A DNA stretch of 64,000 nt, taken from the IMG/VR virus record IMGVR_UViG_3300050016_000047, positions 32,443-96,442 of that record. The stretch is one strand, 5' to 3'. The notes beneath the pieces were generated by a model. It saw only the letters and a list, made by a program, of their open reading frames with translations. It ran no database searches and was not told where the DNA came from. This document shows positions 453 through 63,720 of this stretch, in pieces. Made by a program: the position numbers and the translations under genes. This DNA is from a virus. The stretch's first letter is position 1, and each line of letters starts with the position of its first letter.

Positions 453-665
453 GTGAGCTATATATTAGTTAGGACAGACTGCAAGGTTCCCGCGTACTTT
501 GTCCGCAAAACGGACGAAATGGTTGAAGGGACTGGTGTTATAGGCACGTTTGACAAATCCGAAGCTACTTGTTATGCGAATCGTTGTTCCGCCGAATATA
601 TGCTTAATGAAATTACCCACAAGTTCGGTACTGAGATTGGCGATTGGAAAGTAGCAATCCTGTGA
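453..665 (+). CDS. hypothetical protein, probably leaderless
   Basis: 70-aa ORF starting at the predicted transcription start. Confidence 0.5.
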   Translation: MSYILVRTDCKVPAYFVRKTDEMVEGTGVIGTFDKSEATCYANRCSAEYMLNEITHKFGTEIGDWKVAIL

Positions 666-1192
666 GTGATGTAGGCGAATATATCAAGTACAACTTTAAG
701 TATACCATGACTAATCCGCCTAAATACAAGTCATATAAGTTTAATTCAGACTCTATGATTGAGAACAAACTTAAAGACATTCCTATTAGGCAGTTAAGAA
801 GTGGTTTTAAAATGGCTTGTGGAAAAGATTTAACGGGTAAAAAGATTCCAAGTATAAATCTAATATATTTTTATATTCCTACTCCGATGGGTTTTAGTAA
901 AGAACCAGAAGAGGCTACTCCGGCGGTTTGTCAAGTCTCGGCGAACAGAAAAGAAATTCACGACGAGTTGGTTCGCAGACACACAGCTACGTTGCCGCCA
1001 AAAACTCCATCACATCTAACTGTTAAAGATATTCAGGAAATGAAGAAGCAGTTATTGAGTTGTAATTTTAAAGACCCTTATATTTATTATGGTAATTCAA
1101 ACTGGCCGTGGGATTCTACCCCGCCGGTTAAGGTAAAGAAAAATGGAAAACACAAACCAGAACGATCCAGCACCCCCGAATCCGGGGCGTAG
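644..1192 (+). CDS. hypothetical protein
   Basis: 182-aa ORF with no recognisable motif. Confidence 0.4.
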   Translation: MESSNPVSDVGEYIKYNFKYTMTNPPKYKSYKFNSDSMIENKLKDIPIRQLRSGFKMACGKDLTGKKIPSINLIYFYIPTPMGFSKEPEEATPAVCQVSANRKEIHDELVRRHTATLPPKTPSHLTVKDIQEMKKQLLSCNFKDPYIYYGNSNWPWDSTPPVKVKKNGKHKPERSSTPESGA

Positions 1193-1256
1193 CTTAAGAC
1201 AGAGCACTTGGTTTGGAACCAAGGCGGTGCAGGTTTAAGTCCTGCTGCCCCGACCA
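1183..1256 (+). tRNA. tRNA-Pro(TGG)
   Basis: Acceptor CGGGGCG/TGCCCCG, anticodon arm CTTGG-TT TGG AA-CCAAG, T-arm GCAGG-TTTAAGT-CCTGC, encoded CCA. Confidence 0.85.
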
Positions 1257-1325
1257 GTTTTAAACAGTTTTAAACAGTTTTAAACAGTTTTAAACAGTTT
1301 TAAACAGTTTTAAACAGTTTTTAAA
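1255..1325 (+). repeat. 10-bp tandem repeat (CAGTTTTAAA) x7
   Basis: Six perfect copies plus one with an extra T, starting within the tRNA-Pro CCA end. Confidence 0.95.
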
Positions 1326-1394
1326 GAACCCACGTTTGTTCTAGAAGCTTGACGTACAATCCGTCCTGTGTGGCCGGGAGAAAAGATATTATTT

Positions 1395-1759: not shown

Positions 1760-1766
1760 TTTCCAC

Positions 1767-1840: not shown

Positions 1841-1845
1841 TTTAA

Positions 1846-1919: not shown

Positions 1920-1926
1920 TTTCTAA

Positions 1927-6394: not shown

Positions 6395-8884
6395 ATGAAA
6401 AAACTTCTTACTCTCTTAGGGACGATTATTCTGGGGTTTGTCATAACCGGAACCGCTTCAGCACAGTCCGGTATTCGGGCAAATACTTTTAGTGCAACTG
6501 GCGCTGACATAGCTATCAACAATGCAGGAACAGCAATAGCTTTTCACCAGCTTACGTGGGTTAAAACCGGAACTGTTAGCACTTGTACCGTAGCTCTGGA
6601 TACTTCTGCTGACGGCATAACTTGGAGTGCTGGCGGGGCTATCGCTGGACAAACCTGTACTAGCAACGGTCAGTCTGTAATCACAGGCTCTATTGCTAAC
6701 TATGTACGTATGAACGTAACCACGCTTACTGGTGGTGGAACCATTAACGTAACTTGGACCGGATATACAGCAACTCCGGGCGGAAGCATAACATTCGCTG
6801 GAGCGCCTACCGGAAGTTGTTCTGCTGCACAAACCGCTGTAGATTCAACAACCGGAGATTTCTATTCTTGTAATGGCGGTGTGTGGTTAGCAGTTGGTCC
6901 GGGTGCCGCTGGTTCTGCGGCTTTTAGTACTCTAACTGCTGGTACTAACGGCGGGCAAGCTTTAGTGGTTGGAAACGGCTCAACGCTGTCCGTAACCGGA
7001 ACAGGCACCATTGCTGCTACCTCGGCGGCTAAGTGGACAACTGCTCGCAACCTAGCTGGTAATTCTACAGACGGTTCGGCCAATGTCGCGTTCTCAAACA
7101 AATTTATAGTTCAAGGTACAACGGATTCTGGGTTATCGGGACCGCAATTCTTAGGTGCTTTGGGTACGGGTATAGTAAAGAATACAACTACAACTGGTGT
7201 TCTTAGTATAGCAGTTGCCGGAGACTTCCCAACACTAAACCAAAACACTACTGGTTCTTCTGCAACTCTATCCGGTTCTCTTACACAGTGTACTAGCGGA
7301 CAGTTTGCAACAGGTATTACTTCTACAGGAGCTTCTAATTGCAGTACTCCAGCAGGTTCGGGAAACGTGAGTGGCCCAGTTACAAACACCGATGCTTTTG
7401 TTCCTCAGTGGAACGGAGCTAATAGTCTTCTTCTAAAGGACGGGTTGGCCGTAGCGACCGCTAACACCACTTCGGCTCTAGTTCAAAGAGACGGTTCGGG
7501 TAATTTTTCAGCGGGAACCATTACTGCTACTCTTTCTGGTAACGCTTCTACAGTTACTAACGGTGTGACTGCGGCTTCTAACTTTACAAACGCTCAACTA
7601 GTGATTGCCGGTGGAGCTAATAAAACTCTAGCTACTGGTCCCGCGTATGCGTCAACAAACACAGCATCTAACATTGTACAAAGAGATTCTAGTGGAAACT
7701 TTTCCGCTGGAACTATTACCGCGACCTTAACAGGAAACGCTGATACTGTTACCAATGGCGTCACAGCGGCATCTAACTTTACCAACACTTCTATTCTGGT
7801 AGCCGCCGGAGCTAACAAGACTTCCGCCAGTATGGGATCAGACTTCCTTTTTGCGACTCACACAATTACGGCAGGAGCCAGCGGTGTATTAGATATGTCT
7901 GGCGGTAGTTTGTTTAAAACAACCGTGGGTTCGAGTTTTACTTGCGCGGCAGAAGGATGTTTTGGATTCGATACAGGTCCGGGCAAGATGTACCATGTAT
8001 TTGCTAATGGTGCGGATTCTCTGGTAGCTACTAAACCTGTTTCCGTAACCGTAGCAAATAACGATTGTCCTAAGTGGGTGGTAAGTGGAACCAATATATC
8101 TATTGGAACTACCGGCGCTGCTTGCGCGGCAAGCGGTGTATCGGGAACCACTGGATATATTCCTAAGTTTGCCAGTTCGACTACTGTAGGAAATTCCGCC
8201 GTAGACGACGGAGTAACCACAGCTTCTACTATTACATCTACTGAAGCAATCGTAGCTCCTAGTTTTTCTTCGTCCGCAAGCGGAGCAGGATACTTCCAAT
8301 GTACGCAAGGAACTCTTCCCGGCGTCGGTGGTGCTAACACAGCCACACTAACATGCCCGGCAGCAGTTACGGCGTATGAAGCTGTTCTATGGGGAGCGTC
8401 CGCAACCGGAATAGTTCACGCTTCTAATTCTTCCAACGTAGATACTTTGTCTATCAGTGCCGTTGTCGGCGCAGATATGACCAACAACACCGTAACCGCT
8501 ACACAACTTGCTGCTCAATACTCCAAAGATTCTTGTACGGAACTATGGGGTGGAAGCGGTACATCTTTTGCTCTTACTTCTGGAGACGACGCCATATCTA
8601 ATAACTCCTGTTATAACGACTCTGGTGTAACACGAACCATAACAGCGGTTAAGTGTCGTAGCGATAACGGAACCAATACTACTACGGTGAATCCTACATT
8701 TGGTGCAGCGGGGACAGGAACGACCATATTAAGTGGTGCGCTTACCTGTGGTTCTAGTCTAGCTTATAGTTCTAGTGGAACAGTATCAAATGCAAGTTGG
8801 ACAACGGGTACTGGAATTACTCCAGCCATGAGTGGTACGCTTACTGGAACCAGTATTGCCGTGATTGTAGAGTATACATACTAA
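6395..8884 (+). CDS. tail-fibre-like protein with N-terminal signal peptide
   Basis: Gly/Ser/Thr-rich; duplicated VQRDxSGNFSAGTITA fibre motif; signal-like N-terminus. Confidence 0.7.
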   Translation: MKKLLTLLGTIILGFVITGTASAQSGIRANTFSATGADIAINNAGTAIAFHQLTWVKTGTVSTCTVALDTSADGITWSAGGAIAGQTCTSNGQSVITGSIANYVRMNVTTLTGGGTINVTWTGYTATPGGSITFAGAPTGSCSAAQTAVDSTTGDFYSCNGGVWLAVGPGAAGSAAFSTLTAGTNGGQALVVGNGSTLSVTGTGTIAATSAAKWTTARNLAGNSTDGSANVAFSNKFIVQGTTDSGLSGPQFLGALGTGIVKNTTTTGVLSIAVAGDFPTLNQNTTGSSATLSGSLTQCTSGQFATGITSTGASNCSTPAGSGNVSGPVTNTDAFVPQWNGANSLLLKDGLAVATANTTSALVQRDGSGNFSAGTITATLSGNASTVTNGVTAASNFTNAQLVIAGGANKTLATGPAYASTNTASNIVQRDSSGNFSAGTITATLTGNADTVTNGVTAASNFTNTSILVAAGANKTSASMGSDFLFATHTITAGASGVLDMSGGSLFKTTVGSSFTCAAEGCFGFDTGPGKMYHVFANGADSLVATKPVSVTVANNDCPKWVVSGTNISIGTTGAACAASGVSGTTGYIPKFASSTTVGNSAVDDGVTTASTITSTEAIVAPSFSSSASGAGYFQCTQGTLPGVGGANTATLTCPAAVTAYEAVLWGASATGIVHASNSSNVDTLSISAVVGADMTNNTVTATQLAAQYSKDSCTELWGGSGTSFALTSGDDAISNNSCYNDSGVTRTITAVKCRSDNGTNTTTVNPTFGAAGTGTTILSGALTCGSSLAYSSSGTVSNASWTTGTGITPAMSGTLTGTSIAVIVEYTY

Positions 8885-11536: not shown

Positions 11537-11824
11537 ATGACTGACTCACACGACGCAAAAGCAGTTCTAGGAACTAAACCAAAACACTCCAGTAAGTCCA
11601 AGGGTAAAAAAGTTCACGAAATGCATATCCGCAAAGCGGACAGCGGCGGGTATATTGCTAAGCACGATATGGAACAACCCGAAGACCCTTCGCAAGAAGG
11701 TAATCCTAGCGAAGAACACGTACTACCCGACGTTCAAAGCCTTGCTCAGCATGTCCAAGACCACATGTCCCCGGAGCCTCCTGAAGCCGCACCATCGCCA
11801 GAAGACGCCGGAGCGGGAGCTTAA
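11537..11824 (+). CDS. hypothetical protein
   Basis: GAGG RBS; 95 aa. Confidence 0.6.
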   Translation: MTDSHDAKAVLGTKPKHSSKSKGKKVHEMHIRKADSGGYIAKHDMEQPEDPSQEGNPSEEHVLPDVQSLAQHVQDHMSPEPPEAAPSPEDAGAGA

Positions 11825-16958: not shown

Positions 16959-18122
16959 ATGACTGAACAGATACCAGTACCAGTAGACCCTTGGATTGAT
17001 GATGATTTTGCACCGCTAGACACTCGAAAAGATAAGTCAGACCTTATGCACGCTTTGGTAGACTTGGCAGACGAAGAACCAGAGTTTGCCCCTACCGCAG
17101 AAGAAGTGGTAGCAGCGGATGGTCCGAAGATTGTAGTTCCACCCGCTCCGGAAATTTTGGTAACCGATAAACCAGAAGTTATTGATTATCCGGATGGTTC
17201 CAGAGTTACAATAGAGAAAACGCCAAAAGGTCTTAAAGCTACACTAGACCCCGGCAACGGCAAGAGTCTAGAAGTTTTTTACGGCAAGACCGAGAGCGAA
17301 CTTCTACGCCAGCTTCTTCCGGCTAAGTTAAACGCGACTAAGATTATAAACAAGCAGAACAAAGAACTAAAGACTGTCCGTATTGCGGACGAGTCGCGAG
17401 CGGTTCCAGCACCGCCGGTTAGTAAAGCTCTTACTGCCGATGAAGTGTTCGAAATTAAAACACAACTGGCAAGCAACCCCGACTTAGCTATGGAGACTTG
17501 GTTCCAAAAGAAAACAGGTCTATCGCTGGCGCAGCTTTCAAGTTTCGTTCAGAACGGCCAAAACGCCGCGAACAAACTAAATGCTGAAACAGAAGCTAAA
17601 GAATTTTTGCTTGATAACCCAACTTATTACAAAACAGACAATAACTTTTATGAGTTGGTTGGATACATCGCCAGAGTTAAGGGCGATAAAGATGCCAAGG
17701 CTTTACTAGTAGATGAAAAGCTAGAAGCTCTTATGGAACATCTTTCCAAGATTGGTGTATTCACCAAAGAGAATTTGTCGGAAGCTTTTGATGAATTATC
17801 AGAAGCGGGAGAACTAGAAACTGCTCCCAGACGACAACGTAGGGAAGTTCCAGCCCCTACAGAAGAAATTGTGGAGCCTCCGGCGATTCCGGCGGCACCC
17901 GCAACGGTACAAGAAGTGCCTGCGACAGATGAACGGATTGTTCGAACTGTTCGTAGATCGAGAGCGGCTTTTGGACTTCGAGGAACGGATACTACGGTAC
18001 CCGCAATCGAACCATCCAGCAAAGCGCCCTCAGACGAAGAGCTTGATAGTTTGAGTGACGCAGAAATTTCTGATTTGATGAATCAGACTAAACGACTGCG
18101 TGCTCAATCCGCTCGGCGCTAG
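16959..18122 (+). CDS. capsid scaffolding-like protein
   Basis: Acidic, Pro-rich and helical; immediately upstream of the capsid gene. Confidence 0.6.
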   Translation: MTEQIPVPVDPWIDDDFAPLDTRKDKSDLMHALVDLADEEPEFAPTAEEVVAADGPKIVVPPAPEILVTDKPEVIDYPDGSRVTIEKTPKGLKATLDPGNGKSLEVFYGKTESELLRQLLPAKLNATKIINKQNKELKTVRIADESRAVPAPPVSKALTADEVFEIKTQLASNPDLAMETWFQKKTGLSLAQLSSFVQNGQNAANKLNAETEAKEFLLDNPTYYKTDNNFYELVGYIARVKGDKDAKALLVDEKLEALMEHLSKIGVFTKENLSEAFDELSEAGELETAPRRQRREVPAPTEEIVEPPAIPAAPATVQEVPATDERIVRTVRRSRAAFGLRGTDTTVPAIEPSSKAPSDEELDSLSDAEISDLMNQTKRLRAQSARR

Positions 18123-23350: not shown

Positions 23351-23516
23351 AATTCTACCAGAACTGGGATACGTAAAAGGCAACGTGGCTGTTATGTCGT
23401 TTAGAGCAAACTCTCTAAAACGAGACGGATATTTAAAAGAATTTAAGTTATTAGTAAGTTGGTTGGAAGAACAAGAACTTCGCAGGATTGGCTCAGCGGC
23501 GACGGCAGCAGTTTAG
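23328..23516 (+). pseudogene. C-terminal fragment of HNH endonuclease
   Basis: IDRILPELGYVKGNVAVMSFRANSLK aligns with the intron HNH at 19581; N-terminus missing. Confidence 0.75.
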
Positions 23517-23723
23517 TCCGCAAAACGGACAGAGAATAAAAATGTCTGACGAAATGTACGCCTTGGTAGGCACTGAAACAAAAGAAATTATCGTGGACAA
23601 GATTCCGTGCGGAAGAAGCATAACAACAGTTTATAGAGATTCTGCGGGCGACGTAGTTCGCCGCGACGTGAATATAGAAGTAGACGAAGGTATTATCATG
23701 GGTATCAAGGACGGTAAACTTTA

Positions 23724-26956: not shown

Positions 26957-27265
26957 ATGAGCACACCTCAGATTGACCATTTACCGCCGCAAAATCTTTT
27001 AGACTTAGCTAGAAATGAATCCGCCATGACTGCGGTTCGTATTCGCGCGGCTGAGTTACTTATAGACGGTGGCTACAAACAAGCAAACCATCCAGACATA
27101 GTTGATCTTGTTTGGACAATTAAGAATAATCGCGCACAGGGTAAAGACGAAAAACTCGAACCTTCTCCCGAAAAGTTTGTTCCCGCACCTAGTCCGGAAG
27201 GCGGACTGCGAGCAAGTGTAACTACCGAAAGTCTTCTTCAAGACAGTTTTAAGTTAGAGGAATAA
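26957..27265 (+). CDS. hypothetical protein
   Basis: ORF with RBS, coupled to the next gene. Confidence 0.5.
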   Translation: MSTPQIDHLPPQNLLDLARNESAMTAVRIRAAELLIDGGYKQANHPDIVDLVWTIKNNRAQGKDEKLEPSPEKFVPAPSPEGGLRASVTTESLLQDSFKLEE

Positions 27266-29925: not shown

Positions 29926-29955
29926 ACTCGTCCGCAAAACGGACAAGCAGGTTAG

Positions 29956-41856: not shown

Positions 41857-42306
41857 ATGAAACTAACATTCGTTAGACCTGTCCGCGAAACTGACGCACC
41901 AAAATTTATAGAGTGGTCTAAAGAGAATCCTGCATTCGATCCAAAAGTCGCGTTGTATCCATCCACCATGAACTACGCGGCGTTTAAAAAGAACAAAATA
42001 GTTCTGTATGCTCCTGTTCAGAAACCGCTATTTATAGAAGCACTAGCAATAAATCCAGAAGCCTCTGAAATGGAGATTGCTTCTGCCATGTGTGAGATTA
42101 CCCAAGAAGCTGTGAGCAAAGCCTATCGGGAAGGTTCCGGAGAGATTTACTTTCTTGGAACGAACGAGGACACCATAGTTTATGCTTCCAAGTGTTTCGA
42201 AGAAGTTCCCTACCGACTTTTCAGACTCCGAATATCTAATATCGAAGGACAAAATGAACAAGTTCAAGACCAGCAAAATTCTTTGGCTGTCGGCGAAACC
42301 TCTTAA
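41857..42306 (+). CDS. GNAT-like fold protein (podovirus tail-assembly position)
   Basis: VRPVRETD start; located before the ejection proteins. Confidence 0.4.
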   Translation: MKLTFVRPVRETDAPKFIEWSKENPAFDPKVALYPSTMNYAAFKKNKIVLYAPVQKPLFIEALAINPEASEMEIASAMCEITQEAVSKAYREGSGEIYFLGTNEDTIVYASKCFEEVPYRLFRLRISNIEGQNEQVQDQQNSLAVGETS

Positions 42307-45630: not shown

Positions 45631-48600
45631 ATGGCTGACCAAACCATATCGCCTCCAGCGGGATTTGTGCTTGATTCTCCAACCGCGACGGCTGCTGCGT
45701 CAGCACCTAGTATAACTCCGCCTACAGGGTTTGTTTTAGACAAGCCTACATCTACTATAAAACCGCCTTCTGGATTCACGCTTGACAGTCCGCAAAGCGG
45801 ACAACCAAATGTCGGCGCGCCGACACAACAAACTGACCCAGAAGCCGGTAAAGCGTGGTACGAGAAAGCATGGGATTGGGCCAACGCTCCTACGGTGAAT
45901 TTTAACAGTTCTAACCAAGGTGGGTTTACCGGCGGGGCAGAAGACGTTGCTAGCGGCCTTACAAGCCCTTTAAGCATAGGATTGACTGTAGGCACCCTAG
46001 GCGGCGGTGCGTTGCTTAAAACGCTCGGTATCGCCGCAGAAGAGCTTCCCTTGGCCGTCCGTGGACTTAAGGCACTCACTGATGCCGGGTTTACAGGTCA
46101 GGCCGCCTACCAAGCCATTCGAGAGAGTCCCAGTGTCCTAGACGCCCTTAAAGACGGCGATTACTCTACAGCCGAACGTCTAGCCACACACGTACTCGCC
46201 GGTGCTACTTTTGCCGAACTTGGCAGACACCAGTTGGCCGGGGATAGCGGCACGCTTGGAGAAGTTACCGGAAAAGTACTCGGTAAGGACGCCGGAGACT
46301 ACGTTAAGAACTTTGCCACTAAAATAGGTGCCAAAGTCGCGCCTACTTTTGAAAACATGCTTCTGAGAACGAAGTATGGTAAGTACCAAGGTGACGTGGC
46401 TACCTACCATAAGATTGCGTCTGACTTAGGCGAAGCTTGGCATAAACAATTTAAAACCCTATCTCCACAAGACCGCGAAGCTACCATGTATCATATGGAA
46501 GCCGGTGGAGACGACTCGCCAGAAACTAAAGCTAAACTTACGGACAGATACAACTACATAGCTGATTCTGCCGGTCGGCCAGAAGATAAAATCCCGGTTG
46601 ACGAAACTCCACAAAGAATCCTCGCTCAGCGCGGACTAGATTACAAGGGCGAACTCACTCCGGGTTCTGGCGTACACATGTTTGAAGACCCGCGTTTCCC
46701 CGGCAAGACCGTAGCTTTAAAACAAGAAGACTTTACCCCCGATAACGTCAAGACCGCGATTCAACAAAAACTCCGTGATTTTAAAATTCCTGAAACTCAG
46801 GTTGAGACTTCGGGCGTACTGGACAAAGACATTCAGCATTATAACGACATAACGGCGGAACAACACATCAAAGACGAATATACTCCCAAAGAAATAGACA
46901 ACTTAATGGGAGCGTACAAGAAAGCTATTTTGGCTACGCCGACAGATAATCCGGCGGTTTATGGATTGTCTAAACAGGCCAGAGATGTTTTTAACGAGTG
47001 GGGAGAGAAAGCAAAAGACAACAGCGTAATCACTAAAACAGTCCAAGACTATATTACGCACTTGTGGGGCAAAGACGCCGATAATCCGGCTGCTAATCTA
47101 TTAGCCCACGATGCTTCTGGTTTTCATACTAACGCTACCATGGCGAGAAACCGTATTTTTGACAACGCTTTCGAAGGTCAGATATATGGTAAGAAACTTG
47201 CTGTTACCGACCCCGTACCCATTGCAGCCAACTATATAAGTAAGATAGGCGAAGCTATCGCCGGACGCGATTTTAAAAAGAGTTTGTTTGGTGTTCGCGC
47301 GGCGGATGGGCGGCCTTTGCTTGCTCACTCAGGGGCGGGCGAACTCCTAGAAGATTCCGTAGATAAAGATGGAAAGGTTCTTCCTCCTTCTGTTATGGTT
47401 AATCCGCGAACTCTTAGAAATATCCGCGTTGCGGACGCGACTGTTCAAGGACTTAAAACCGCCGGAACTTTTGACAGCTTACTCGATGAAGGAAAACTAG
47501 TCAAGCTTCCTTTGAAAGAAGGTAAGCCGCAGAGTTATGCTTGGAGTACCCGCGACTACAGACAAAGTACTTCACCGGACCTAAGAGACTGGACACACGT
47601 TGCCACTGATTCTGGCGGCAAACCCGTGTTTGTAAAATCGGATATTATGGTTCATCCCGACGCTCACGATTACTTAGAAAAACTAATCGGTGAACAAAAA
47701 TCTTCTATTAAAAACATTCCTATTGTATCGAGTTTGTTAAAAGCAGGTGGAGAACTAAAACACCTCCAGCTTGCGTTGAGTCCTTTCCACATCGCCCAAG
47801 AAGGGCTTCGAGCAATAATGACGGGCGTGAGTCCGTGGGGAGTTGAAAAATACAGTTTGGACGACGGCAGTCCGCAAGCTAAAAATCTTCTCAATGGAAT
47901 AAGAGAAAGTCTAACAGTAGGAAAAGACCGTGCAAGCGTACAAGACTACCAAGAAGGTAACGTAGCTTCCGGCCAAAGTAAAATCATATCTAAGATTCCT
48001 TTGGTAAGAGATGTTCAGGCGTCTCTACAAAGTTTTCTTTTTGACAAGTATATCCCCGGACTGAAAGTACGAGCGTTCCATCATTTATTTGAAGACTACA
48101 ACAACTCTCTTTCTAATCCAGAAACTTTGGATAAACTTATTAAACAACGCCCAGATATGAAGGGGTATACTCAAGACCGCGCGGCTGCTAGACTGGCTGC
48201 TGAGGACGCGAATGAAAGATTTGGCGGTTTAAACTACAAACAGCTTGGACGTTCGGCTGGACTACAGGATTTCTTTAGACTGGGTGCGTTAGCTCCGGAC
48301 TGGCTAGAATCAGAAGCTCGCCAAGCCGTAAGAGCAATTAAAGGCGGTCCTCAAGGCAATATTGCCCGAATGGATATGGTTAAACTAACCGCCGGGTTGT
48401 GGGCGTCCAGTCGCGTGCTGAATTTACTAACTAGCGGGCAACCGCATCTTGAAGCTCCGTTTGGTGTAGCCCTAAAAGACAAAGACGGTAAAGAAAAAAT
48501 CTACTCAGTAAGAACTTTGCCTACGGATATTTTTCATATGGTTTCTGCTCCGGCGGATTTCTTACGTGGCCGCGTTAGCCCTCTAACTAAGATTGCTAGT

Positions 48601-49279: not shown

Positions 49280-50320
49280 GTGCCCAAACCAACTCCCATA
49301 TATCTCGATGCCAGCATTCGTAGTGTTGAACTTGATGAATTTGAATACAGACTCAAAAATCACATTGTGGGACAAGACGATGCCATAACTGCGCTCGCGG
49401 ATATATACCAGATGTATAAAGCTAAAATGAACTCCCCCGGAAGACCTGTGGGGAGTTTTCTTTTTCTAGGTCCTACCGGCGTGGGTAAGACGGCGTTGTG
49501 CGAAGTCTTAGCTAAAATACTGTTCGGTACTGAGAAAGCCATAATAAAAGTTAATTGCGCGGAATTTCAACACAGCCATGAAATAGCCAAGATTATCGGT
49601 TCGCCGCCCGGATACTTAGGCCACAGAGAAACAGGTTCGTTCTTAAATGAGAAACGCCTAACTGAATACTGCACAAAAGACAATCCACTTAGTATACTTC
49701 TTTTTGACGAAATAGAGAAGTCCTCAGACGCTCTGTGGCAGCTATTACTAGGCATTTTGGACAAAGCTACTCTAACACTAGGCGACAACTCTAGAGTGGA
49801 TTTAAGCAACACAATGATATTTTTGACTTCGAATCTAGGAGGGAGGGATATTACGAAGTTGGCTGCGGATTCTGGACTAGGATTTCATACTTCGGATACT
49901 ACCCATGATGACCTTGAGAACGCCGCGCTGTCCGCAATGCGGATTAAGTTCTCACCAGAGTTTATAAACAGACTTGATAAAATAGTAGTGTTTAATTCTT
50001 TGGGTAAAACTCAGTTGCAACAAATTCTTGACATAGAACTAGAAAACATTCAGGAACGTCTACTAGAAAATGAATATACGAGATTCGCATTCAACCTAAC
50101 CCCAAGCACGAAGGAGTTTTTACTTAAAGAAGGCGTAGACATAAAATACGGAGCTAGACACCTTAAAAGAGCGATTCACCAACACATTGTGTATCCTCTT
50201 TCGAATTTAGTGTCTAGCGGCCAAGTACGAAGCGGCGACTCCGTACTTATAGACAGAATCGAAAACGAAACTAGATTTTGTTTATCTAAGAACGCTTTAA
50301 TTAAGGTTGCCAATCTTTAG
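49280..50320 (+). CDS. standalone Clp-type AAA+ ATPase (second nucleotide-binding domain only)
   Basis: IVGQDDA, FLFLGPTGVGKT, IGSPPGYLG, LFDEIEK, FSPEFINRLD, YGARHLKR. Confidence 0.92.
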   Translation: MPKPTPIYLDASIRSVELDEFEYRLKNHIVGQDDAITALADIYQMYKAKMNSPGRPVGSFLFLGPTGVGKTALCEVLAKILFGTEKAIIKVNCAEFQHSHEIAKIIGSPPGYLGHRETGSFLNEKRLTEYCTKDNPLSILLFDEIEKSSDALWQLLLGILDKATLTLGDNSRVDLSNTMIFLTSNLGGRDITKLAADSGLGFHTSDTTHDDLENAALSAMRIKFSPEFINRLDKIVVFNSLGKTQLQQILDIELENIQERLLENEYTRFAFNLTPSTKEFLLKEGVDIKYGARHLKRAIHQHIVYPLSNLVSSGQVRSGDSVLIDRIENETRFCLSKNALIKVANL

Positions 50321-51129: not shown

Positions 51130-51470
51130 AGCTTACCCTCCAGTTCGGCCTGCTTAGAATACATTAGAGCGTCTAGAAGTTCTTGATACAAGTCCAGTAT
51201 AACATCTCTGCCGTTATTTGTCAATAGGCGGGTGCCGTATTTCTTTTCGCCGAATTGTGCACGAGTTTCTATATCGTTTGCAATATCTTCATACACACCA
51301 GTAAAACCGGACAATCCTGTTTTAATACGAAGCGACCTAGTTATATCTAATAAATCCCTAAATAAATTAGTGTTATGTGTTTTTCCTAAAACTCCATATC
51401 TAACTTCGGTTGTTACGTCTTGCTGGTTCTGTCCGCTTTGCGGACTCTGCTGCTGTGCTGCCACGTCCAT
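51126..51470 (-). CDS. all-alpha nucleotide pyrophosphohydrolase-like phage protein
   Basis: KKYGT.L..NNGRD..LDLYQELLDALMY. Confidence 0.5.
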   Translation of the reverse strand: MDVAAQQQSPQSGQNQQDVTTEVRYGVLGKTHNTNLFRDLLDITRSLRIKTGLSGFTGVYEDIANDIETRAQFGEKKYGTRLLTNNGRDVILDLYQELLDALMYSKQAELEGKL

Positions 51471-51855
51471 TTTTTCGCTCCTCGTTTGTAATTTTGGGGT
51501 GTGATTCGGAACCAAAATGGTCTACATAATAATCAAAAGCTTTAAAAAATAAATCCTCTCTAGATTCTATAAAACCAACCATAGTATTACATCTTTTACA
51601 AAGTAAAGATCGAACTTCTCCACATTGGTGACAATGATCTAGATTGGCGGATAAAGCTTGTAAACCGTTTCTAAGCAGAGGGCCGGAACCACATATTCTA
51701 CATTTGTATTCTTGTTCTTCTAACATTCTGGTTAAGTCTTCTGGCTCTAATCCAAATCTGCGAAGTCTAGCGTTACTTTTGTGGTATTTGATAGCTTCTG
51801 CATTTCTTACACGATACAATTTATTTTTATCTAAAACGTGTTGTGGAGTTTTCAT
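51400..51855 (-). CDS. endonuclease VII-like HNH endonuclease
   Basis: CRICG, LDHCH..GEVRSLLCKRCN. Confidence 0.85.
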   Translation of the reverse strand: MKTPQHVLDKNKLYRVRNAEAIKYHKSNARLRRFGLEPEDLTRMLEEQEYKCRICGSGPLLRNGLQALSANLDHCHQCGEVRSLLCKRCNTMVGFIESREDLFFKAFDYYVDHFGSESHPKITNEERKNGRGSTAAESAKRTEPARRNNRS

Positions 51856-54646: not shown

Positions 54647-55324
54647 TTAGTGTTCATTAAAAATCTTCTCCATCCGCTTTGCGGACTCTCTTTGTTTCTT
54701 AAGCAACTTGGCTCTTTTCTTAGTGCCTGTTTTTCCGGGTAAAGTGTATACAGGTTCTCCAAAAGCTTTGCTTGCGGGCGGATTTTCTAAATAATCTGCA
54801 CACGCTCTAAACAACATTATACTGTCATGTAAATGCCCAAGAATATAATTACAAGGAAACTGACAAACCAATCCTCGTATCAAACCTGTTTTATGGTCGT
54901 GGTCTACCGCTGCCCTAGAAACTTTTGGATTTAAACTAAAATCAAATATGGTCTGTATCGGTTTTTTACATATTGCACAAATTCCTCCCTGAGAAGCGTG
55001 TATTAACATCCATTGTTCAGGGGTTATTCCATATTCTTTTACAACTCTATATCTTTTACTAGCCTCTCTAATCTTTTGTTTGTTGGTTTCGTCCGCCCAT
55101 CTTTTTTTATTAGTTTCTGTTTCGCATTGTTTACACCGCCAATGAGTATTATCTGTGGGAGGTGTTATACCTACTTCGGTTAATAAATGACCTTTTCTAC
55201 ACCTAGGTTCCTTTATTAGAGAACGATTTAAAGGAGACTCCGCACACCTATCGCAAAACTTATGCCAAGGGTCTCTATTAAATTTAGAACCACACCCGCT
55301 ACAGGTTTCTTTTCTTTTAGTCAC
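54647..55324 (-). CDS. endonuclease VII-like HNH endonuclease
   Basis: YGIT, CAICK, VDHDHKTGLIRGLVC..CN. Confidence 0.88.
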   Translation of the reverse strand: MTKRKETCSGCGSKFNRDPWHKFCDRCAESPLNRSLIKEPRCRKGHLLTEVGITPPTDNTHWRCKQCETETNKKRWADETNKQKIREASKRYRVVKEYGITPEQWMLIHASQGGICAICKKPIQTIFDFSLNPKVSRAAVDHDHKTGLIRGLVCQFPCNYILGHLHDSIMLFRACADYLENPPASKAFGEPVYTLPGKTGTKKRAKLLKKQRESAKRMEKIFNEH

Positions 55325-55651: not shown

Positions 55652-56268
55652 AAAGTCTCCTAGTTTGTATACTCTTTCTTAAGAACTAGAGTGTTCTGTA
55701 AATACATTCCTATTGCATAAGTTAGTTTGTCCGCCTGCTCGTTAGTCAGTGTGGCGATTACAGGTCTGTTCAGTACGGCGGCAAGAGCCTGCTTACAGTA
55801 TTCTTTTTCTGACTCTGCGGAATGGTACTTATCTATGTATTTATCCCGTTCCGACTTATAAATCTTGTTATCGGCTAGTAGGCTGACTATTTGGTTGTAG
55901 CCGAGTATGGCTACCGCTCCTATTAGCGCGGCGAATAAAATCACGAATAAGTTCAAAATCTTCCTCCTAACAGAATACGTAGACGTTGGTTTAATTCTTC
56001 TTCGGTCGCGCCGAATACTTTTTCTTCCTTGTAGCCTTTGTCAGATTTGCCAAATTTAATATAATACCTGTGGTCAACCACCGCGACTAAACCATTATTT
56101 CTGTATAGAATGTTTACTATTGGTTTTTTCACTTGTTCTCCACCGACTGTCCGCAAAACGGACAAAACTGCGGTTCTTCGGAAAAATCACACTGAAATTC
56201 CTTACCACATGTTTCACACAAATACTCTGATTTATCGTTTGGGTCGCTTCCAACGTAAATAGGGCCAC

Positions 56269-56849: not shown

Positions 56850-57281
56850 TTATTTAAAGTAGCTGGTTGTTCCAATCGTTGCGCATCTTGGATGTAAATC
56901 CGGTCGCTGTACAATCGCCCGGTCGAACCAACCGCCTTTTTGAAATCCCGCTGACTGCAAATCGCTGTAGTATATTGCACCATTAGTGAGTATATCTTTC
57001 ATAGTACCGTCGAACACGTTATCCACGAACTGTAATACTTTCTGGAAGTTAGGTTCGCGCGGGTCTGCGTAATACACCGTGCGGTTATCCCCTTTTATAA
57101 CCATACTACTAAATTGGTTCTTTGCGGTTATGTTTTTATATAGGTCGCCGCCGAACCAACCCGCAGCCACTCTTGTCCGCAAAACGAACAACACTCCAAG
57201 ACAACCATTTACTCCGTTTGACTCTTCCTCGCGCACAGCTAGTAGGCACGCCAAGCTTTTAACGTAGTTATCAGAAACCAC
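56850..57281 (-). CDS. cell wall hydrolase (SleB/Hydrolase_2-like)
   Basis: LA....RE, V..VLRTRV, NQFSSM, TNGAIYY, IGT..YFK. Confidence 0.8.
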   Translation of the reverse strand: MVSDNYVKSLACLLAVREEESNGVNGCLGVLFVLRTRVAAGWFGGDLYKNITAKNQFSSMVIKGDNRTVYYADPREPNFQKVLQFVDNVFDGTMKDILTNGAIYYSDLQSAGFQKGGWFDRAIVQRPDLHPRCATIGTTSYFK

Positions 57282-57790: not shown

Positions 57791-58210
57791 CTAGTGTGTA
57801 ATCACTTCCGGGTCGTCTTTAACAGTAGTAAATTTTGGAACAGCGGGTTTTACTACTGGCTTCCTAGTAGCAATATCTATAACTTTGGCTGGGGTTATTG
57901 GTGTGGAATCCCCGGTAGCGTCTGGTATGGATGGCGCGGACTTCGCAAACTCTTCCGCCGCCAATCTTTCTTCTTCTAGAACTTTCGGCGACTTGAGCGG
58001 AACGAAGTCACGTAGCCACGCCAGCAAGCAAGCCTTTGAACAGAACACAGCTTTAGCAGAATTGCTTAGTTCTAGAATAAGAATCCTGAACGCGGCTTCT
58101 GGAACCGTCTTCATGTCGCGTTGGGCCTCTTCCTGATTCCAGCGAATCTCTGTAGTGCAGGCTTTGTTGTCACAATTCACTACTATTTCTGTTTTAATTG
58201 TTGAACTCAT
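57791..58210 (-). CDS. hypothetical zinc-binding protein
   Basis: CDNKAC...FCSKAC. Confidence 0.5.
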   Translation of the reverse strand: MSSTIKTEIVVNCDNKACTTEIRWNQEEAQRDMKTVPEAAFRILILELSNSAKAVFCSKACLLAWLRDFVPLKSPKVLEEERLAAEEFAKSAPSIPDATGDSTPITPAKVIDIATRKPVVKPAVPKFTTVKDDPEVITH

Positions 58211-58779
58211 TTATTCCTCACGTCTATTTTTAAGTAGTTACGAATCTTTTGCTTTGCACTTATTTCTTTCCACCGCACCCACTTTGCTGTTTTCGTGAAC
58301 GCATCGGCGATTTCTTTACGGGTCTTCTTATCGCAGTTTATGCCGAAGACGCTGCGAATTACTGCTTGCTCCGACCAACTTAAGATTTTCAGACTATCTA
58401 AGATTTTCTCTATATCCAAAAACTCTAGTTCGGGAACAACGTATTTTTGTATCTCGGCTGTCCGCATTACGGACGGATCGGCCAAACTAACGTATTCAAC
58501 GGTTGGTTTCTCCTCGGGACTACTCTTACCCGGCCCGCCGACCTTACCCGGATTATACGCTTTAATACCTTGTTTTTTGTCTCCTTGTTCTTTTCGCAGA
58601 ATATTTAGTACGCAATTCTTAGCCGCGATATAGGCAGTTCCTTTGTTATTAATTTTGTCCCCGGCCTCCAGCAAACTTAAATAACACTCCTGCCGCAAAT
58701 CATCCTGAATATCCGAATCCTTATCAAAAGCGTACTTGGCTACGACCTTGTTTATTTCTTCAGTATAGTCTAATACCAT
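58207..58779 (-). CDS. sigma-70 family sigma factor (regions 2 and 4)
   Basis: DDLRQECYLSLLEA; LSWSEQAVI...FG....KTRKEIA. Confidence 0.8.
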   Translation of the reverse strand: MVLDYTEEINKVVAKYAFDKDSDIQDDLRQECYLSLLEAGDKINNKGTAYIAAKNCVLNILRKEQGDKKQGIKAYNPGKVGGPGKSSPEEKPTVEYVSLADPSVMRTAEIQKYVVPELEFLDIEKILDSLKILSWSEQAVIRSVFGINCDKKTRKEIADAFTKTAKWVRWKEISAKQKIRNYLKIDVRNK

Positions 58780-59729
58780 TACGTGTCAAACCCAACCTTG
58801 GCAGATTCTTTTCGCTTAGGAGCTTTCTTTTTGTTATTTGTAAGACGAGCTAGAGTTTCATCGTAATCCAACCCCATGCAGCACACAGCACTAATTAGTT
58901 CGCGCAAGTGAGCCATGCCAAGACCTTCTGTATCGGCAGCCCATTGCTTTATTGTATCGTTGTCAAGTCCAGAGTTAGGTACGCTAGCCAGATACTCCTG
59001 TCTCGCCTGAAGTGACGGCATTTTTACTTCTAAAATCAAGTCAAACCTACCCGGGCGCTGACTGATGCGTTCTTCTAGTTTTTCGGGATAGTTAGTAGTG
59101 GCGAGTTGCAACACGTTGTTAATTTGGTGCTCGCCATCCAACATACTTAGAATACTGGAAGAATCCCACATTTCCATTTGCGCTTCAATGTCTTCTATAA
59201 TATGTACGATTGGTCGCTCCGGTTCAATTTCGCGCAAAGCCTTGAATCCAGCTATACTAGTATCCGGGTCGTTCATAATAATTACTACGCCGTTTCTGGC
59301 AATCACGTCATCGGTCAAGAGTTTAATCAAACTTGTTTTTCCGCCGCCAGCTATACCATAGAAAAGAATCCCACGCTTGTGCAGTAGGCCGGAATCAATA
59401 TAGTTTTGTTTACTCTCCCAAAAACGTTCTATTTGTTTTAAAACAGAAACCGAGTATCCGTCCGTAATACGATACAGCGCGTCGGCGTTAAACTTGGCCG
59501 GACTGAATATAACTCCTTTGTCCGTATTCTTAATTGTATACACCCCGGCGGGAAGTTCTTTTGCGGTTTTCTCGCAAGACTTATACTCGCCAGCCGAAGT
59601 TATCATCCATTGTGTGTACTTGCTTTCTTTCCCCATGGGTTTTTCCCCTAATATAGCTTGTAATAGTTCATCTTCCGGCCAGTCTTCCATCTTCTTTAAA
59701 GCGTATTCTAATCGGGTTTCGGGGTCCAA
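58779..59729 (-). CDS. AAA family ATPase
   Basis: RGILFYGIAGGGKT, IIEDIE, ATTNYPEKLE..I..RPGRFD. Confidence 0.9.
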   Translation of the reverse strand: MDPETRLEYALKKMEDWPEDELLQAILGEKPMGKESKYTQWMITSAGEYKSCEKTAKELPAGVYTIKNTDKGVIFSPAKFNADALYRITDGYSVSVLKQIERFWESKQNYIDSGLLHKRGILFYGIAGGGKTSLIKLLTDDVIARNGVVIIMNDPDTSIAGFKALREIEPERPIVHIIEDIEAQMEMWDSSSILSMLDGEHQINNVLQLATTNYPEKLEERISQRPGRFDLILEVKMPSLQARQEYLASVPNSGLDNDTIKQWAADTEGLGMAHLRELISAVCCMGLDYDETLARLTNNKKKAPKRKESAKVGFDT

Positions 59730-60115
59730 TTTATCCGCCTATTCGCATGTGCCGCGTTCGGACTTCCTAAATGGCATGAGTAGCAAATGAAAACACAGTT
59801 ATACAAACTTACGTCTCCGCCCTTACCTTTGGGCACAACCTCGTGCATATGCCCAGTTTGGTAAGTCACTATTTTACCACAATACTCGCACTCGCCGCCG
59901 GACCTCTCGAAAACTTGTTTACGAATCTCGCCTACTGCGTCTTTGCGCGAAGTCTCGGCGACTCTACCTTCGTCGGCGGCTTTAGAAATAGCCGCAGCAC
60001 CTTGGTTACGAAAAAGCTTAACTATCTTGCCGTCTATTTTCTCTACCCACACTCTGCCGCGCGGCACTAGCCGGTTCCTACTTGGCTTGCATACGTTCCA
60101 TAAAATTCTCGACAA
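59708..60115 (-). CDS. HNH endonuclease
   Basis: FERSGGECEYCG...HMHEVVPKGKGG....NCVFICYSCH; start uncertain. Confidence 0.8.
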   Translation of the reverse strand: MSRILWNVCKPSRNRLVPRGRVWVEKIDGKIVKLFRNQGAAAISKAADEGRVAETSRKDAVGEIRKQVFERSGGECEYCGKIVTYQTGHMHEVVPKGKGGDVSLYNCVFICYSCHLGSPNAAHANRRINWTPKPD

Positions 60116-60729
60116 ATTCTAAGCATTATTTCTTTGGTCTGAATAATTGCTGGTAGAGTGTTTTGAATCGGCGGGTCCAGATGCCGGGCTACATAAAATG
60201 CCGACTCTACTTCGTCTTTTTCCGATTCACTTAAATAACACGCTCCGAAGCTAAAATAGTTACCACCGTCAGAAGGATGCTTGTCGCCGAACGCGGCTTT
60301 TTTAAACTCGTCAATAGTAACTTCTGGGTCAATTGCTTTAGCTACCAGTTCCTTGCTTACCGTTCCGTCTTGGCTTACCAGTTTCTTTAGTTCTATCGCT
60401 TTGCCGATTCCCATGCCAATAAGGTCTTTTTGGCTGACGATTGGAAGCAAATACTCGGCTACTGAAATATACTGGTAAAGCTGGGTGCGGCCTTTACCGT
60501 ATTTTGTCCGCAGGCTTTCAATATACGTGCTAAACTTGTCGAATCCCCACAGAATCCAGTACTGTTCGTTTTGTACTTTACTGAGCAATACGCCGATTTC
60601 TACTAGGTTGCCGGACAAGAGTTCTTCTTTGTTTTTAATGCTGTCAAGAACAGCGTTTATTTTGATGTTTAAACTTCCTGCTTTATCGCGGTCTTCGTCA
60701 GACCACTTCATTATTTTAGTTTCAGTCAT
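60067..60729 (-). CDS. putative DNA-binding protein (DUF3102-like)
   Basis: EIG..L..V...W...F..Y helical pattern, GIGKA. Confidence 0.45.
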   Translation of the reverse strand: MTETKIMKWSDEDRDKAGSLNIKINAVLDSIKNKEELLSGNLVEIGVLLSKVQNEQYWILWGFDKFSTYIESLRTKYGKGRTQLYQYISVAEYLLPIVSQKDLIGMGIGKAIELKKLVSQDGTVSKELVAKAIDPEVTIDEFKKAAFGDKHPSDGGNYFSFGACYLSESEKDEVESAFYVARHLDPPIQNTLPAIIQTKEIMLRICREFYGTYASQVGTG

Positions 60730-61845
60730 TCCGGAAACACCTTTTCAATAATACGTTTAAGTAATTTTTTACCGTCTTGATATTGGTCACCGTTGTAGGT
60801 ATTATTATAAAGAGCATCCAAATCTTTTAGAAGTTTTTCTCGTTCGGTTGGGGATTTTTCTACACTTACTATGGTACCAATAAAATTACAAACGCCCCCA
60901 TTTGGTTTGACTATAACTTCCCCAATTCCTCCACTAAAATTTGGCACTTCTACAGTGATTTTCACCTATGTCTCCTTCCAGATTCGGCATCTAACCTAAT
61001 CATACACTCCAAGCACCAACACCTGCTACCATCCCAACTAACCCCCTTTTGGCACCATTGACGAGGTTTTGGCGCATCTAAGTTAATTCCTTTTACTTCT
61101 GCGTACTTTTTTAGACGCCGCCACTCGCCGTTAGGTTGCACACGATACTGGCGGTCGCTCGCCTGAATAACGGTTCCCGGCGGATGGAACGGGGTCCACT
61201 GTACTGCTGGTGTTTCTTCCATAATTTAGTATACCACACTTTCGTCCGTTTTGCGGATTATACATTTGTCTTCAAATTCCTTTATTCTCTGTTGAGCTTC
61301 ACAGAGTAAGCTCGCTAGTTCAATTTGCCCTTGTCCCAAACTATCGAGAGTACATTCAGGAGAACAAGAGCAAGCTGATTCCGGGAACAATTCAATTTGT
61401 TTTGTGTTTTCGCAATAATGAACACTGGACCCAGACCAATCTTGGACATGCGTTCTAGTCGGGTAAGCGGAGTCTTGTCTTTGCGGACACGATTCTTTAT
61501 GGCAGGGATGGTCCCGCCAATCGTTGCAAAATGGTTCGTGGCAATAGTGGATTTTCATTGTTTATCTCCTCGTTCTACGTTGAATTGGATTAGCTCGACC
61601 GCGCCTTCTTTAATCGCGTCACGGGACTGCAAATGACACGTTCCAATTTGAATCCAATCACCAGTAGCTTTCAGTTTGGCCTTAACTTTGAAGCATGAAT
61701 TGTCGGCGTCAAGCTGGAATCTAAATTTCATGTGTGTCGTCTCCATGCCCATATAGTAGATTACTCCCTCACGGATGTCAAGAGTTATTTTCGGGAGTTA
61801 AGTATATAGTTCCCATAAATAAACACCCCACTAGAATAAACCATT

Positions 61846-63720
61846 TCATACTTCTGCTGCCTTTCCGTAAGGCTCTTGTATATTCGTTTCTTCCACGAAA
61901 CTCGCGTACTCACCTATGAATTTTAAAACTGTAAATGTATTTCCTTCACCTTTAAACCGCGCACCGTGTAAATGAATTTCAGTTTTGGTATCGTAGTCGT
62001 CTTTCGGCGGATTCAATGGGTCCAAACACCTCACGTTGTCTCGGTGAATACTATAAATCGCCGAGGCGTCAGAGCCGCCAGTCTCAGAACCTTTCCAATC
62101 CGATACGTGAACAGCTTTGCCTTTGTTCTGCTGGTTTGTTTTTCTCGGCTGGCCGACTACAATAAATTTAAGTCCGTACTTTACAGACATGTTTTTAATT
62201 CGTTGGAACGCGTCTTCTTGCGCCTTCACCGTGTCTTTCTCGTTTCGGATGATAAAGTGGATGTGGTCTAATACTACCACGGTTGCCCCTAGGCGTTGAA
62301 CCGCCGCTTCGATTAAATCAAGTACCGGAGTCACGGTTGTAAGTGTCGGGTCGTAGCCGATATAGTATTTAATCCCGCCTAGTTGTTTCGCAGCTAGAAC
62401 ATGGTCTGCTTTGACTAAGTGATTTCGGTCTTTACGCAAAACGTGACTGGTTACAATCGTAGAAAATTCATCTGTACTTAGTTCGCACGAATAATTCAAT
62501 ACAACTTCGTTGTGGTTTCTGGCTCCAAATAAAGTCGCATTCATTACCCATGCAGTTTTGCCCTGTTTGGTTTGCGTTGCGAAAATACTCGCCACAGAGC
62601 CGGGTAGCAGAATCGCCATCTTGTCCACACTCGGCCAAGGGAAGCGAAAGCGTTTTGGATGGTCTGCTAGATTGGTTTGACTGGCCGACTGCATACTTTC
62701 AGTCAAACTATAAATATTTGGCATTGGCGCGGACTTAGCAATACTGGTTAAGTCGGCGACTAGGGTTTTAAACGTCTCTAAGTCTTTCCCGCAGTCTGTT
62801 ACGAAGACTTCGTTGGCGTCTTTAAATCCAATCGGCCAATTCAAAAGATAAGTCCGGTCTAATTGTGCCCACAGTTTACGCATGGCTTCCGTACCGGGAG
62901 AATCGGAATCCCCGGCGAGAATCACACACTCAGCTTCCATTAGTTTGTCTTTCATTTCCGGCGTGACTTCAATATTCGCGGAGGGTAAACTTACGGCGTT
63001 GTATCCAGCTTGCGTTAATACAGCGGCGTCAAATTCACCCTCGCACAAATAAACTGGAGAGAAAGGGTCTATGCTGTCCGTGTTGAACAAAGAGGTTTGC
63101 ATTCCGGGCTGACGTATAAAAACTTTGTCAACAATTGATCTATATTTAAGACAAACAACTCTTCCATCGGCAATGCAAGGTAACGCGAGCCATCCTTTGT
63201 CCGCAAGGTGATTGTTTTTCTCTCCGGCCAAATTTCCAAGATTACTAACGAACCCAAACTTGAGATTTCTTGCGGTGTCAAGATTTATTCCTCTTTTCGT
63301 TAAATATGTTAAAGCTTCTTTCGAGTTAGCGAGATTCTGTTCTAACGGGTAGTACTGTTCCATTGTAAAAGTTTTGTAATGGTCTGATTCTTTGTTTACA
63401 GGACTAAAAGTTTTTTCTACTAGAGCTTTCTTACTTTCCCACGAACCGCCAATATATTCTTTCACTCGGCGGACGGCTTCGCCGAACGGAACTTTGTCCA
63501 CAGCTTCTACAAACTGAAAAATATTTCCAGAACGATTGCATCCGAAGCATTTAAAAAGCCAAACTCCTTCATGCTGATAAACTCTTAAACTGGGAGTTTT
63601 CTCGTTATGAATTGGACACAACCCAAGATATTCTTTACCTTCTTTCGAAAGTTTGATGTGATCTTGGTATATCCGCAAAACGGACGGAGATTGTTTTATG
63701 GCTTCAAGATTTTCAGTCAT
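61846..63720 (-). CDS. bifunctional primase-helicase
   Basis: CPIHNEKTPS/CFGC CHC2 finger, CEGEFDA/DSDSPG Toprim, GKT/VLDHIH SF4 helicase. Confidence 0.92.
   Translation of the reverse strand: MTENLEAIKQSPSVLRIYQDHIKLSKEGKEYLGLCPIHNEKTPSLRVYQHEGVWLFKCFGCNRSGNIFQFVEAVDKVPFGEAVRRVKEYIGGSWESKKALVEKTFSPVNKESDHYKTFTMEQYYPLEQNLANSKEALTYLTKRGINLDTARNLKFGFVSNLGNLAGEKNNHLADKGWLALPCIADGRVVCLKYRSIVDKVFIRQPGMQTSLFNTDSIDPFSPVYLCEGEFDAAVLTQAGYNAVSLPSANIEVTPEMKDKLMEAECVILAGDSDSPGTEAMRKLWAQLDRTYLLNWPIGFKDANEVFVTDCGKDLETFKTLVADLTSIAKSAPMPNIYSLTESMQSASQTNLADHPKRFRFPWPSVDKMAILLPGSVASIFATQTKQGKTAWVMNATLFGARNHNEVVLNYSCELSTDEFSTIVTSHVLRKDRNHLVKADHVLAAKQLGGIKYYIGYDPTLTTVTPVLDLIEAAVQRLGATVVVLDHIHFIIRNEKDTVKAQEDAFQRIKNMSVKYGLKFIVVGQPRKTNQQNKGKAVHVSDWKGSETGGSDASAIYSIHRDNVRCLDPLNPPKDDYDTKTEIHLHGARFKGEGNTFTVLKFIGEYASFVEETNIQEPYGKAAEV

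Follow-up and report, generated by a model that had tools for sequence, protein, structure and literature searches.

Short inverted repeats scattered over a whole phage chromosome, with copies inside genes, have been on record since the genomes of the Cluster O mycobacteriophages were described in 2015. Their repeat is a 17-bp dyad (TGTTCGG-NNN-CCGAACA) present in 34 copies in phage Corndog, mostly with AAA/TTT at its centre; it is found in genes as well as between them, does not occur in the host, and was taken by its describers to be the target of a dimeric binding protein for which they thought a transcriptional role unlikely (PMC4351075). A search of the literature found no later functional study of this repeat. 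Two other systems are pertinent: the KorB protein, which, once loaded at the OB palindrome of plasmid RK2, acts over a distance of up to about 1.5 kb (PMC11790492), and the stoperators of Cluster A mycobacteriophages, asymmetric sites read by a monomeric immunity repressor (PMC9283540). Here we describe an array of the Cluster O class, formed by the palindrome RTCCG-N5-CGGAY, in the 96,442-bp virus record IMGVR_UViG_3300050016_000047 (genome G000). The window that was analyzed spans 64,000 nucleotides of this record (G000:32443-96442), and coordinates without a prefix refer to it. The dispersed palindrome is real, is under strong selection, and is kept across a phage family; we consider it somewhat more probable than not (roughly 0.55) that its copies together form an array at which a homodimeric helix-turn-helix protein encoded by the phage, most likely a member of the P0124 family, docks on double-stranded DNA.

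Enrichment of the palindrome within and between genes

The window contains 20 exact copies of RTCCG-N5-CGGAY, against an expectation of 0.13 (the mean of 100 dinucleotide-preserving shuffles, none of which yielded more than two), and an exact copy is indeed present at each of the 20 positions listed in an earlier, sequence-only reading of this stretch of DNA. The complete record has 42 exact sites, while the reversed-pattern control has none. Thirty-six of the 42 sites reside inside called genes, where they are distributed over the three reading frames in a ratio of 19/7/10. In the comparison with codon-shuffled controls that the sequence-only reading had proposed, synonymous codons are shuffled such that the proteins and the codon usage are preserved, and only about 1.7 of the 36 genic sites remain. 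Hence, it is the choice of codons that writes the motif into genes, and the encoded amino acids do not account for it. Equally borne out was the view that the repeat is neither a protein motif nor a set of promoter-proximal operators, since all frames are used, codon shuffling fails to reproduce the sites, and these are not enriched at gene starts, their distance to the next gene start not differing from that of random positions (P 0.13). A scan of IMG/VR with the exact consensus returned scattered single matches only.

Anatomy of the site

The five spacer bases follow the pattern Y-WWW-R, and the full element is thus a 6-3-6 dyad, GTCCGY-WWW-RCGGAC. Beyond the 15 bp of this dyad, a weak preference extends 1-2 bp outward (17-19 bp), with no information further out. 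GTCCG half-sites are found 268 times where 203 are expected, a surplus accounted for by the palindromic copies; in 28 of the 32 GTCCG...CGGAC pairs, the half-sites are separated by N5, and no direct or everted arrangement of the half-site was observed. At the outer R/Y and the inner Y/R positions alike, one half of the site varies independently of the other: C..A is seen most often as the inner pair, and variants at the ends are nearly always one-sided (13 sites of the A/C type versus one A/T). The sequence of the stem is invariant, and it is the centre that varies. Together, the independent halves, the fixed stem and the single spacing point to a two-fold symmetric protein reading double-stranded DNA and not to a hairpin. 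The dimeric DNA-binding protein envisioned in the sequence-only reading therefore fits the independent variation of the half-sites, the single spacing, and the lack of a half-site surplus of its own.

Spacing, orientation and density

The full sites keep their distance from each other. The smallest interval between two of them is 451 bp (P about 2e-4), and with a coefficient of variation of 0.77 (P 0.04) their spacing is over-dispersed. The looser core TCCG-N5-CGGA identifies 47 sites, three degenerate ones among them lying 46-119 bp from a full site; at this level of stringency, three close pairs are seen where 8.2 are expected (P 0.02), and close pairs are likewise depleted in the related genomes G011, G017, G010 and G020. 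The description of the array as a tiling of about one site every 3 kb holds loosely for the average (3.3 kb in the window, 2.3 kb over the whole genome), but not for its regularity, since the spacing is over-dispersed without being periodic. Sites are oriented 26:11 toward an A-rich sense strand, as the A-richness of the sense strand (about 60:40) predicts; no orientation beyond this bias was detected in nine genomes, and in several relatives the ratio is about 50:50. The density of the sites is about twofold higher in the early/replication arm than in the structural arm in six of seven genomes, and the late arm of G000 carries 14 sites.

The motif in related phages and in hosts

G000 is a member of a large family of uncultured soil phages with genomes of about 60-110 kb. 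A megablast search of INPHARED with 20 kb and a locus search with one TerL protein gave no match; the relatives considered here, 78 TerL-related IMG/VR loci, came from an alignment-based search. Among isolates, Tunturiibacter phage Tunturi 3 comes closest; it is a podophage of Acidobacteriota with a 97.6-kb genome, and its TerL is 30% identical. The genome matches of the TerL family are exclusively contigs in metagenome-assembled genomes (MAGs) of Acidobacteriota. The host phylum of the family is probably Acidobacteriota.

Most relatives carry GTCCR-N5-YGGAC, or a 14-bp version of it, in about 6 to 60 copies, where about 1 is expected and controls with a reversed or re-spaced pattern give 0-4. 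Scored as GTCC-N7-GGAC, the motif is present 60 times in G011 and about 40 times in G017 (both of the GTCCA type), 46 times in G010 (mostly as the asymmetric GTCCGGAAAATGGAC), 27 times in G020 and 25 times in G021. G008 has 19 copies of GTCCGG-WWW-CCGGAC, G014 has 22 copies of DTCCG-N5-CGGAH, and G013 and G009 possess six to seven full sites where about 0.1 are expected. The complete genome G012 seemed to be motif-free at first, an impression overturned by its 23 copies (1.4 expected) of a 14-bp variant, GTCCGG-NN-CCGGAC (GTCC-N6-GGAC). Neither G018 (a fragment of 70 kb, 66% complete) nor Tunturi 3 has the motif. An apparent surplus of GATC-N8-GATC in G009 lacks coherent flanks and was read as a 12-nt coding periodicity. 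Across phages that range from 39 to 60% GC, the core of the site is retained; the inner bases, and the spacing as well, differ by lineage.

Most site positions turn over between relatives, but a few are kept in orthologous genes, namely in the 5' part of a gene for a 1203-aa structural protein (G000, G010, G011), in the polymerase gene (G000, G011), and in a sigma-like gene, where G000 and G008 have a site at the same codons. Around such position-conserved sites, the protein sequence has diverged among distant relatives. In the sigma-like gene of G010, a separate site about 15 codons away is written in another reading frame and looks like one of independent origin. Positional turnover, the retention of sites amid diverged protein sequence, and the apparently independent site of G010 all indicate that what is selected is the DNA word and its density.

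The motif appears to be specific to these phages. In a Sulfotelmatobacter MAG (6.1 Mb) representing a putative host, it is not enriched, with 42 matches versus 45 for the control, and seven of these 42 matches are located on a single 50-kb phage contig. In G007, a 4.1-Mb Acidobacteria MAG reached via L160, GTCCR-N5-YGGAC has 11 matches where its reversed control has 98, a deficit that could reflect under-representation in a bacterial genome or mere composition.

P0124 as a candidate for the binding protein

Among the non-structural genes common to the motif-bearing genomes, a single one does not encode an enzyme. Its product is P0124, a 220-aa protein (60067-60729, minus strand) that the sequence-only reading had already suggested for binding assays and that proved to be the best candidate for the binder. 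The gene is present in 14 of 14 relatives larger than 60 kb and is missing from the motif-free Tunturi 3; the P0124 family has 644 representatives at E <=1e-3, of which 170 are found at E <=1e-30. In relatives, the gene directly follows that of a DnaN-like sliding clamp, often overlapping it, on the same strand and downstream of the primase-helicase gene.

An AlphaFold 2 model of P0124 (predicted local distance difference test, pLDDT, of 94.6) contains a putative helix-turn-helix at residues 66-94 with the recognition helix RTQLY. Residues 37-153 of the model align with the DNA-binding domains of ParB, KorB, Spo0J, SopB, VirB and StbA, which occupy eight of the top 14 places (Z 4.7-5.8); the superposition on KorB, Spo0J, SopB and VirB is a weak match, with a root-mean-square deviation of 3.3-4.5 Å over 90-106 residues. 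This modelled resemblance to a ParB/KorB-like helix-turn-helix is no more than suggestive. P0124 is also predicted to form a homodimer, with a score of 0.75 versus 0.00 for the best control, judged by a mark that 20 of 30 proteins solved as one-chain pairs and one of 23 solved as single chains reach. The dimer runs agree in at least 92% of the contacts, and the pLDDT of the partner is at least 83. The predicted interface involves residues 7-61 and 155-217 and draws on the long N-terminal helix and the C-terminal helices, an arrangement that would leave the helix-turn-helix exposed.

The putative recognition helix changes alongside the site. It reads R-T-Q-L-Y in phages with GTCCG sites (G000, G008, G012), R-S in seven genomes with GTCCA or mixed sites, and H-T, with H replacing R, in G014, where the outer G of the site has been lost.

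Several observations weigh against P0124 as the binder. Pfam has no match for any of 78 members of the family, and a family profile run against the PDB sequences gave only spurious matches of the tetratricopeptide repeat type. The fold match just described has a Z below 6, which is under the line at which caution is advised for helical proteins, and Foldseek assigns it E values of 0.5-2. The co-variation of T/S in the helix with G/A in the site tracks two clades and may represent one or two events only. Furthermore, the G018 fragment encodes a P0124 with an intact RTQLY helix, yet it has no motif in its 70 kb. Given its replisome gene neighbours, P0124 could also be a replisome accessory protein without sequence specificity.

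Other proteins were considered as binders and rejected. A 190-aa sigma-like protein (58207-58779, minus strand; a weak match to Sigma70 r2/r4, and a sigma factor according to PHROG) is encoded in the same conserved neighbourhood and tracks the motif (5/7 versus 0/4), but sigma factors read asymmetric promoters. A presence/absence screen for genes restricted to motif-rich genomes yielded an intron-borne LAGLIDADG endonuclease, a SprT-like protease, an acetyltransferase-like gene of the structural arm and an antisense artefact, all of which were dismissed. The sigma-like gene is situated near that of a clamp-loader-like AAA ATPase (58779-59729, minus strand) and, in relatives, near that of the DnaN-like clamp (L170:5262-6374); this set of sigma-like factor, clamp loader and clamp recalls the clamp-dependent late transcription of phage T4.

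A proposed docking-site array and its possible function

We suggest that each P0124 subunit would read one GTCCGY half-site and that the A/T-rich 3-bp centre is probably not contacted. Selection would then maintain a density of well-separated sites, about twofold higher in the early/replication arm, rather than particular positions. The retention of density instead of position suggests that the role is a distributed one, with every site serving the part of the chromosome in which it lies. P0124, presumably produced along with the replisome, might nucleate on the sites and thereby mark, organise or silence the phage DNA during infection.

A bolder version of this proposal is possible, although we regard it as unlikely. 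The sites and the P0124 dimer would then make up a system, not described before, that marks the phage chromosome and is tied to replication; in it, a ParB/KorB-like DNA-binding module without a CTPase, supplied from a replisome operon beside the sliding clamp, the clamp loader and the sigma-like factor, would nucleate every 1-3 kb on phage DNA only, and would direct the loading of the replisome or the clamp, clamp-dependent late transcription, or the shut-off of early genes. The dispersed palindromes of Cluster O and other phages may follow the same logic.

Alternative explanations

The alternative that survives best, albeit as a quite improbable one, is a stoperator-like silencing in which a lysogeny repressor (P0124 or another protein) would bind all over the prophage and block transcription, one of the functions that the sequence-only reading had proposed. 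The phage encodes a tyrosine integrase, its dozens of mostly genic sites are densest in the early arm, and the drift of the motif between relatives resembles that of stoperators between Cluster A subclusters (PMC6550527). Known stoperators, however, are asymmetric sites that a monomer recognises and that affect elongation (PMC9283540), whereas the palindrome studied here is an unoriented dyad with no strand preference beyond the base-composition bias. Moreover, in relatives the start of the candidate gene touches or overlaps the end of the clamp gene on the same strand; the gene is part of the replisome block, with whose members it would be co-transcribed, and this context is that of the lytic phase. 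Fourteen of the sites, too, lie in the late arm.

A decidedly low probability is assigned to the idea that the palindrome is the target of an enzyme, be it a phage methylase, a hypermodification enzyme or a T5-like nickase, through which the DNA would be marked chemically as self or nicked at defined places. Type II-like enzymes typically recognise short palindromes, and genes for an N6/N4 methylase, a PAPS-reductase-like protein and several HNH/EndoVII nucleases are present in G000. Yet these enzymes do not accompany the motif: the N6_N4 methylase (PF01555) is present in four of 14 relatives and a C5 methylase (PF00145) in two of 14, the motif-rich G008, G010 and G012 have neither, although G008 and G012 are complete, and the PAPS-reductase gene lacks a homologue in the relatives. 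This sporadic occurrence of phage methyltransferases speaks against a methylation mark at the sites. It should also be considered that the targets of such enzymes are not normally 100-fold enriched and spaced out, and that a nick site with dyad symmetry would be cut on both strands.

An equally low probability attaches to host-factor sites, that is, to a phage that gathers binding sites for a DNA-binding protein of its host in order to exploit or titrate it. In favour of this view, the phage binder is a candidate only, and G018 has P0124 but no motif. Against it stand the lack of enrichment in the one putative host genome, a kind of comparison that the sequence-only reading had proposed, and the fact that the core persists at 39-60% GC while the inner bases and the spacing shift together with a phage protein.

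Very improbable, finally, is a hairpin element acting as an RNA or single-stranded DNA stem-loop in processing, stability or priming: a 5-bp G+C-rich stem with a 5-nt loop could form and the sense strand is more often the A-rich one (26:11), but an invariant stem with a variable loop is the opposite of how structured RNAs evolve, covariation is absent (the inner C..A pair and the A/C-type ends cannot pair), both orientations relative to transcription are used, and the sites have no U-tract, no conserved flank and no match to an Rfam family.

Genome layout and positions of the sites

The genome of G000 is laid out in two arms. The structural arm encodes TerL, the portal protein, a major capsid protein whose gene is broken by group I introns, and tail proteins. 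The early arm comprises genes for replication (primase-helicase, family A polymerase, SSB, clamp-loader-like ATPase), recombination (RecA, ERF) and nucleotide metabolism (ribonucleotide reductase, ThyX, dCMP deaminase), in addition to RtcB, the tyrosine integrase, the N6/N4 methylase, several HNH/EndoVII nucleases and the sigma-like protein. The primase-helicase gene (61846-63720, minus strand) heads the replisome block that contains the candidate binder gene.

The commonest form of the site in the window, GTCCGCAAAACGGAC, is found at 501-515, at 2687-2701 (intergenic), at 20036-20050 (within the intron-borne HNH open reading frame, ORF, of the capsid gene), at 23516-23530, at 29930-29944 (intergenic, with the next start codon 12 nt on) and at 56149-56163. 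Further exact matches are ATCCGCAAAGCGGAC (11627-11641), GTCCGTATTGCGGAC (17376-17390), ATCCGCAAAACGGAT (19292-19306, within the intron-borne LAGLIDADG ORF of the capsid gene), GTCCGGAAGGCGGAC (27192-27206), GTCCGCAAACCGGAC (33660-33674) and GTCCGTTTAACGGAC (38370-38384). GTCCGCAAAGCGGAC (45788-45802) lies in the gene for the 1203-aa structural protein and is present at the same place, encoding the peptide P..GQ, in two distant relatives. It is followed by ATCCGCGTTGCGGAC (47422-47436), GTCCGCAATGCGGAT (49930-49944), GTCCGCTTTGCGGAC (51431-51445), ATCCGCTTTGCGGAC (54672-54686) and GTCCGCATTACGGAC (58460-58474), the last of which is the site in the sigma-like gene shared with G008, the closest relative. 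GTCCGTTTTGCGGAT (61244-61258) is positioned about 0.5 kb upstream of the candidate binder gene, and ATCCGCAAAACGGAC (63671-63685) at the 5' end of the primase-helicase gene. The near matches noted in the sequence-only reading were found as well: GTCCGGTATTCGGGC (6466-6480), GTCCGCGAAACTGAC (41881-41895) and GTCCGCAAAACGAAC (57175-57189) each deviate from GTCCG-N5-CGGAC by one fixed base, and the copy at 2641, which reads ATCCGCGTAACGGAA, is a degenerate one located 46 bp from the full site at 2687.

Mobile endonucleases seem to be common in essential genes of this phage family. The major capsid gene (18153-20721) is split, with exon 1 at 18153-18725, the LAGLIDADG ORF at 18856-19380 and the HNH ORF at 19581-20201, after which Rfam detects a group I intron at 20412-20593; exon 1 is 82-89% identical to its counterparts in relatives whose TerL identity is just 36-59%. 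The TerL homologues P0003 (970 aa) and P0067 (993 aa) of relatives carry a LAGLIDADG_3 (PF14528) insertion that is probably an intein. At least four Endonuclease VII/HNH genes are free-standing (51400-51855, 54647-55324 and 59708-60115, all on the minus strand, and G000:22199-22864 on the plus strand), and one HNH gene sits between the candidate binder gene and the ATPase gene.

A cluster of five tRNA genes (1183-2077; Rfam) marks the start of the plus-strand arm. The RecA of the phage (52180-53175, minus strand; Pfam RecA, E 9e-131) is of the bacterial type, its versions in G008 and G012 are 65-67% identical, and the ERF recombinase is encoded elsewhere in the same genome. A 917-aa early protein (G000:25575-28328, minus strand; L006:10576-13329) has no Pfam or PHROG match; its gene is followed by that of a dual-specificity phosphatase with a double zinc ribbon (G000:24060-25574, minus strand; L006:9061-10575), and both proteins are also present in G008 and G010. 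A MoxR-like AAA_5 ATPase and a DUF7192 protein are encoded as a pair shortly before the window begins (G000:29378-31536, minus strand), neither of which has a homologue in the five relatives compared.

Comparison with known systems

The stoperators of Cluster A share with the palindrome the presence of dozens of sites for one phage protein throughout the genome, many of them genic, and the co-evolution of site and protein (PMC9283540, PMC6550527). They differ in that the palindrome is an unoriented dyad and in that its candidate reader is a predicted dimer encoded in a replisome operon.

In mechanistic terms, the best analogue would be KorB-OB. Like the KorB, ParB-parS and Noc-NBS systems, G000 has a palindrome of similar size scattered over the replicon, some copies of which are far from promoters, and an action at a distance such as that of KorB (about 1.5 kb) would explain why the sites are well separated. 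Residues 37-153 of P0124 are weakly similar to the DNA-binding domain of KorB and ParB. On the other hand, no ParA or KorA partner was seen in the phage, and P0124 is predicted to dimerise through its N- and C-terminal helices. A canonical ParB/KorB system is ruled against by the absence of the N-terminal CTPase domain of ParB (PF02195), which was detected in none of the 14 genomes searched, while the control search had matches in 10 of 14 reference genomes.

The closest precedent is the Cluster O repeat, which is an analogue and not a homologue of the palindrome. Both are short inverted repeats with a 3-bp A/T-rich centre, present genome-wide in more than 30 copies (here 42 in 96 kb), in and between genes and without a meaningful orientation. 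The Cluster O repeat is absent from its host; the palindrome is not enriched in the Sulfotelmatobacter MAG, a putative host genome that carries a related phage contig. The two differ in sequence, in phage lineage and in host phylum. What the phage family of G000 adds to this class is a testable protein candidate and a set of natural site variants (G or A at position 5, loss of the outer G, and 14-bp versus 15-bp spacing). With 36 of 42 copies genic, a motif traced over a deep family in which the inner bases and the spacing drift, and one conserved candidate protein whose recognition helix changes alongside a sharply defined site, it provides a clean test case. Once the binder is settled, one can ask why large phages of the lytic type keep a chromosome-wide lattice of sites.

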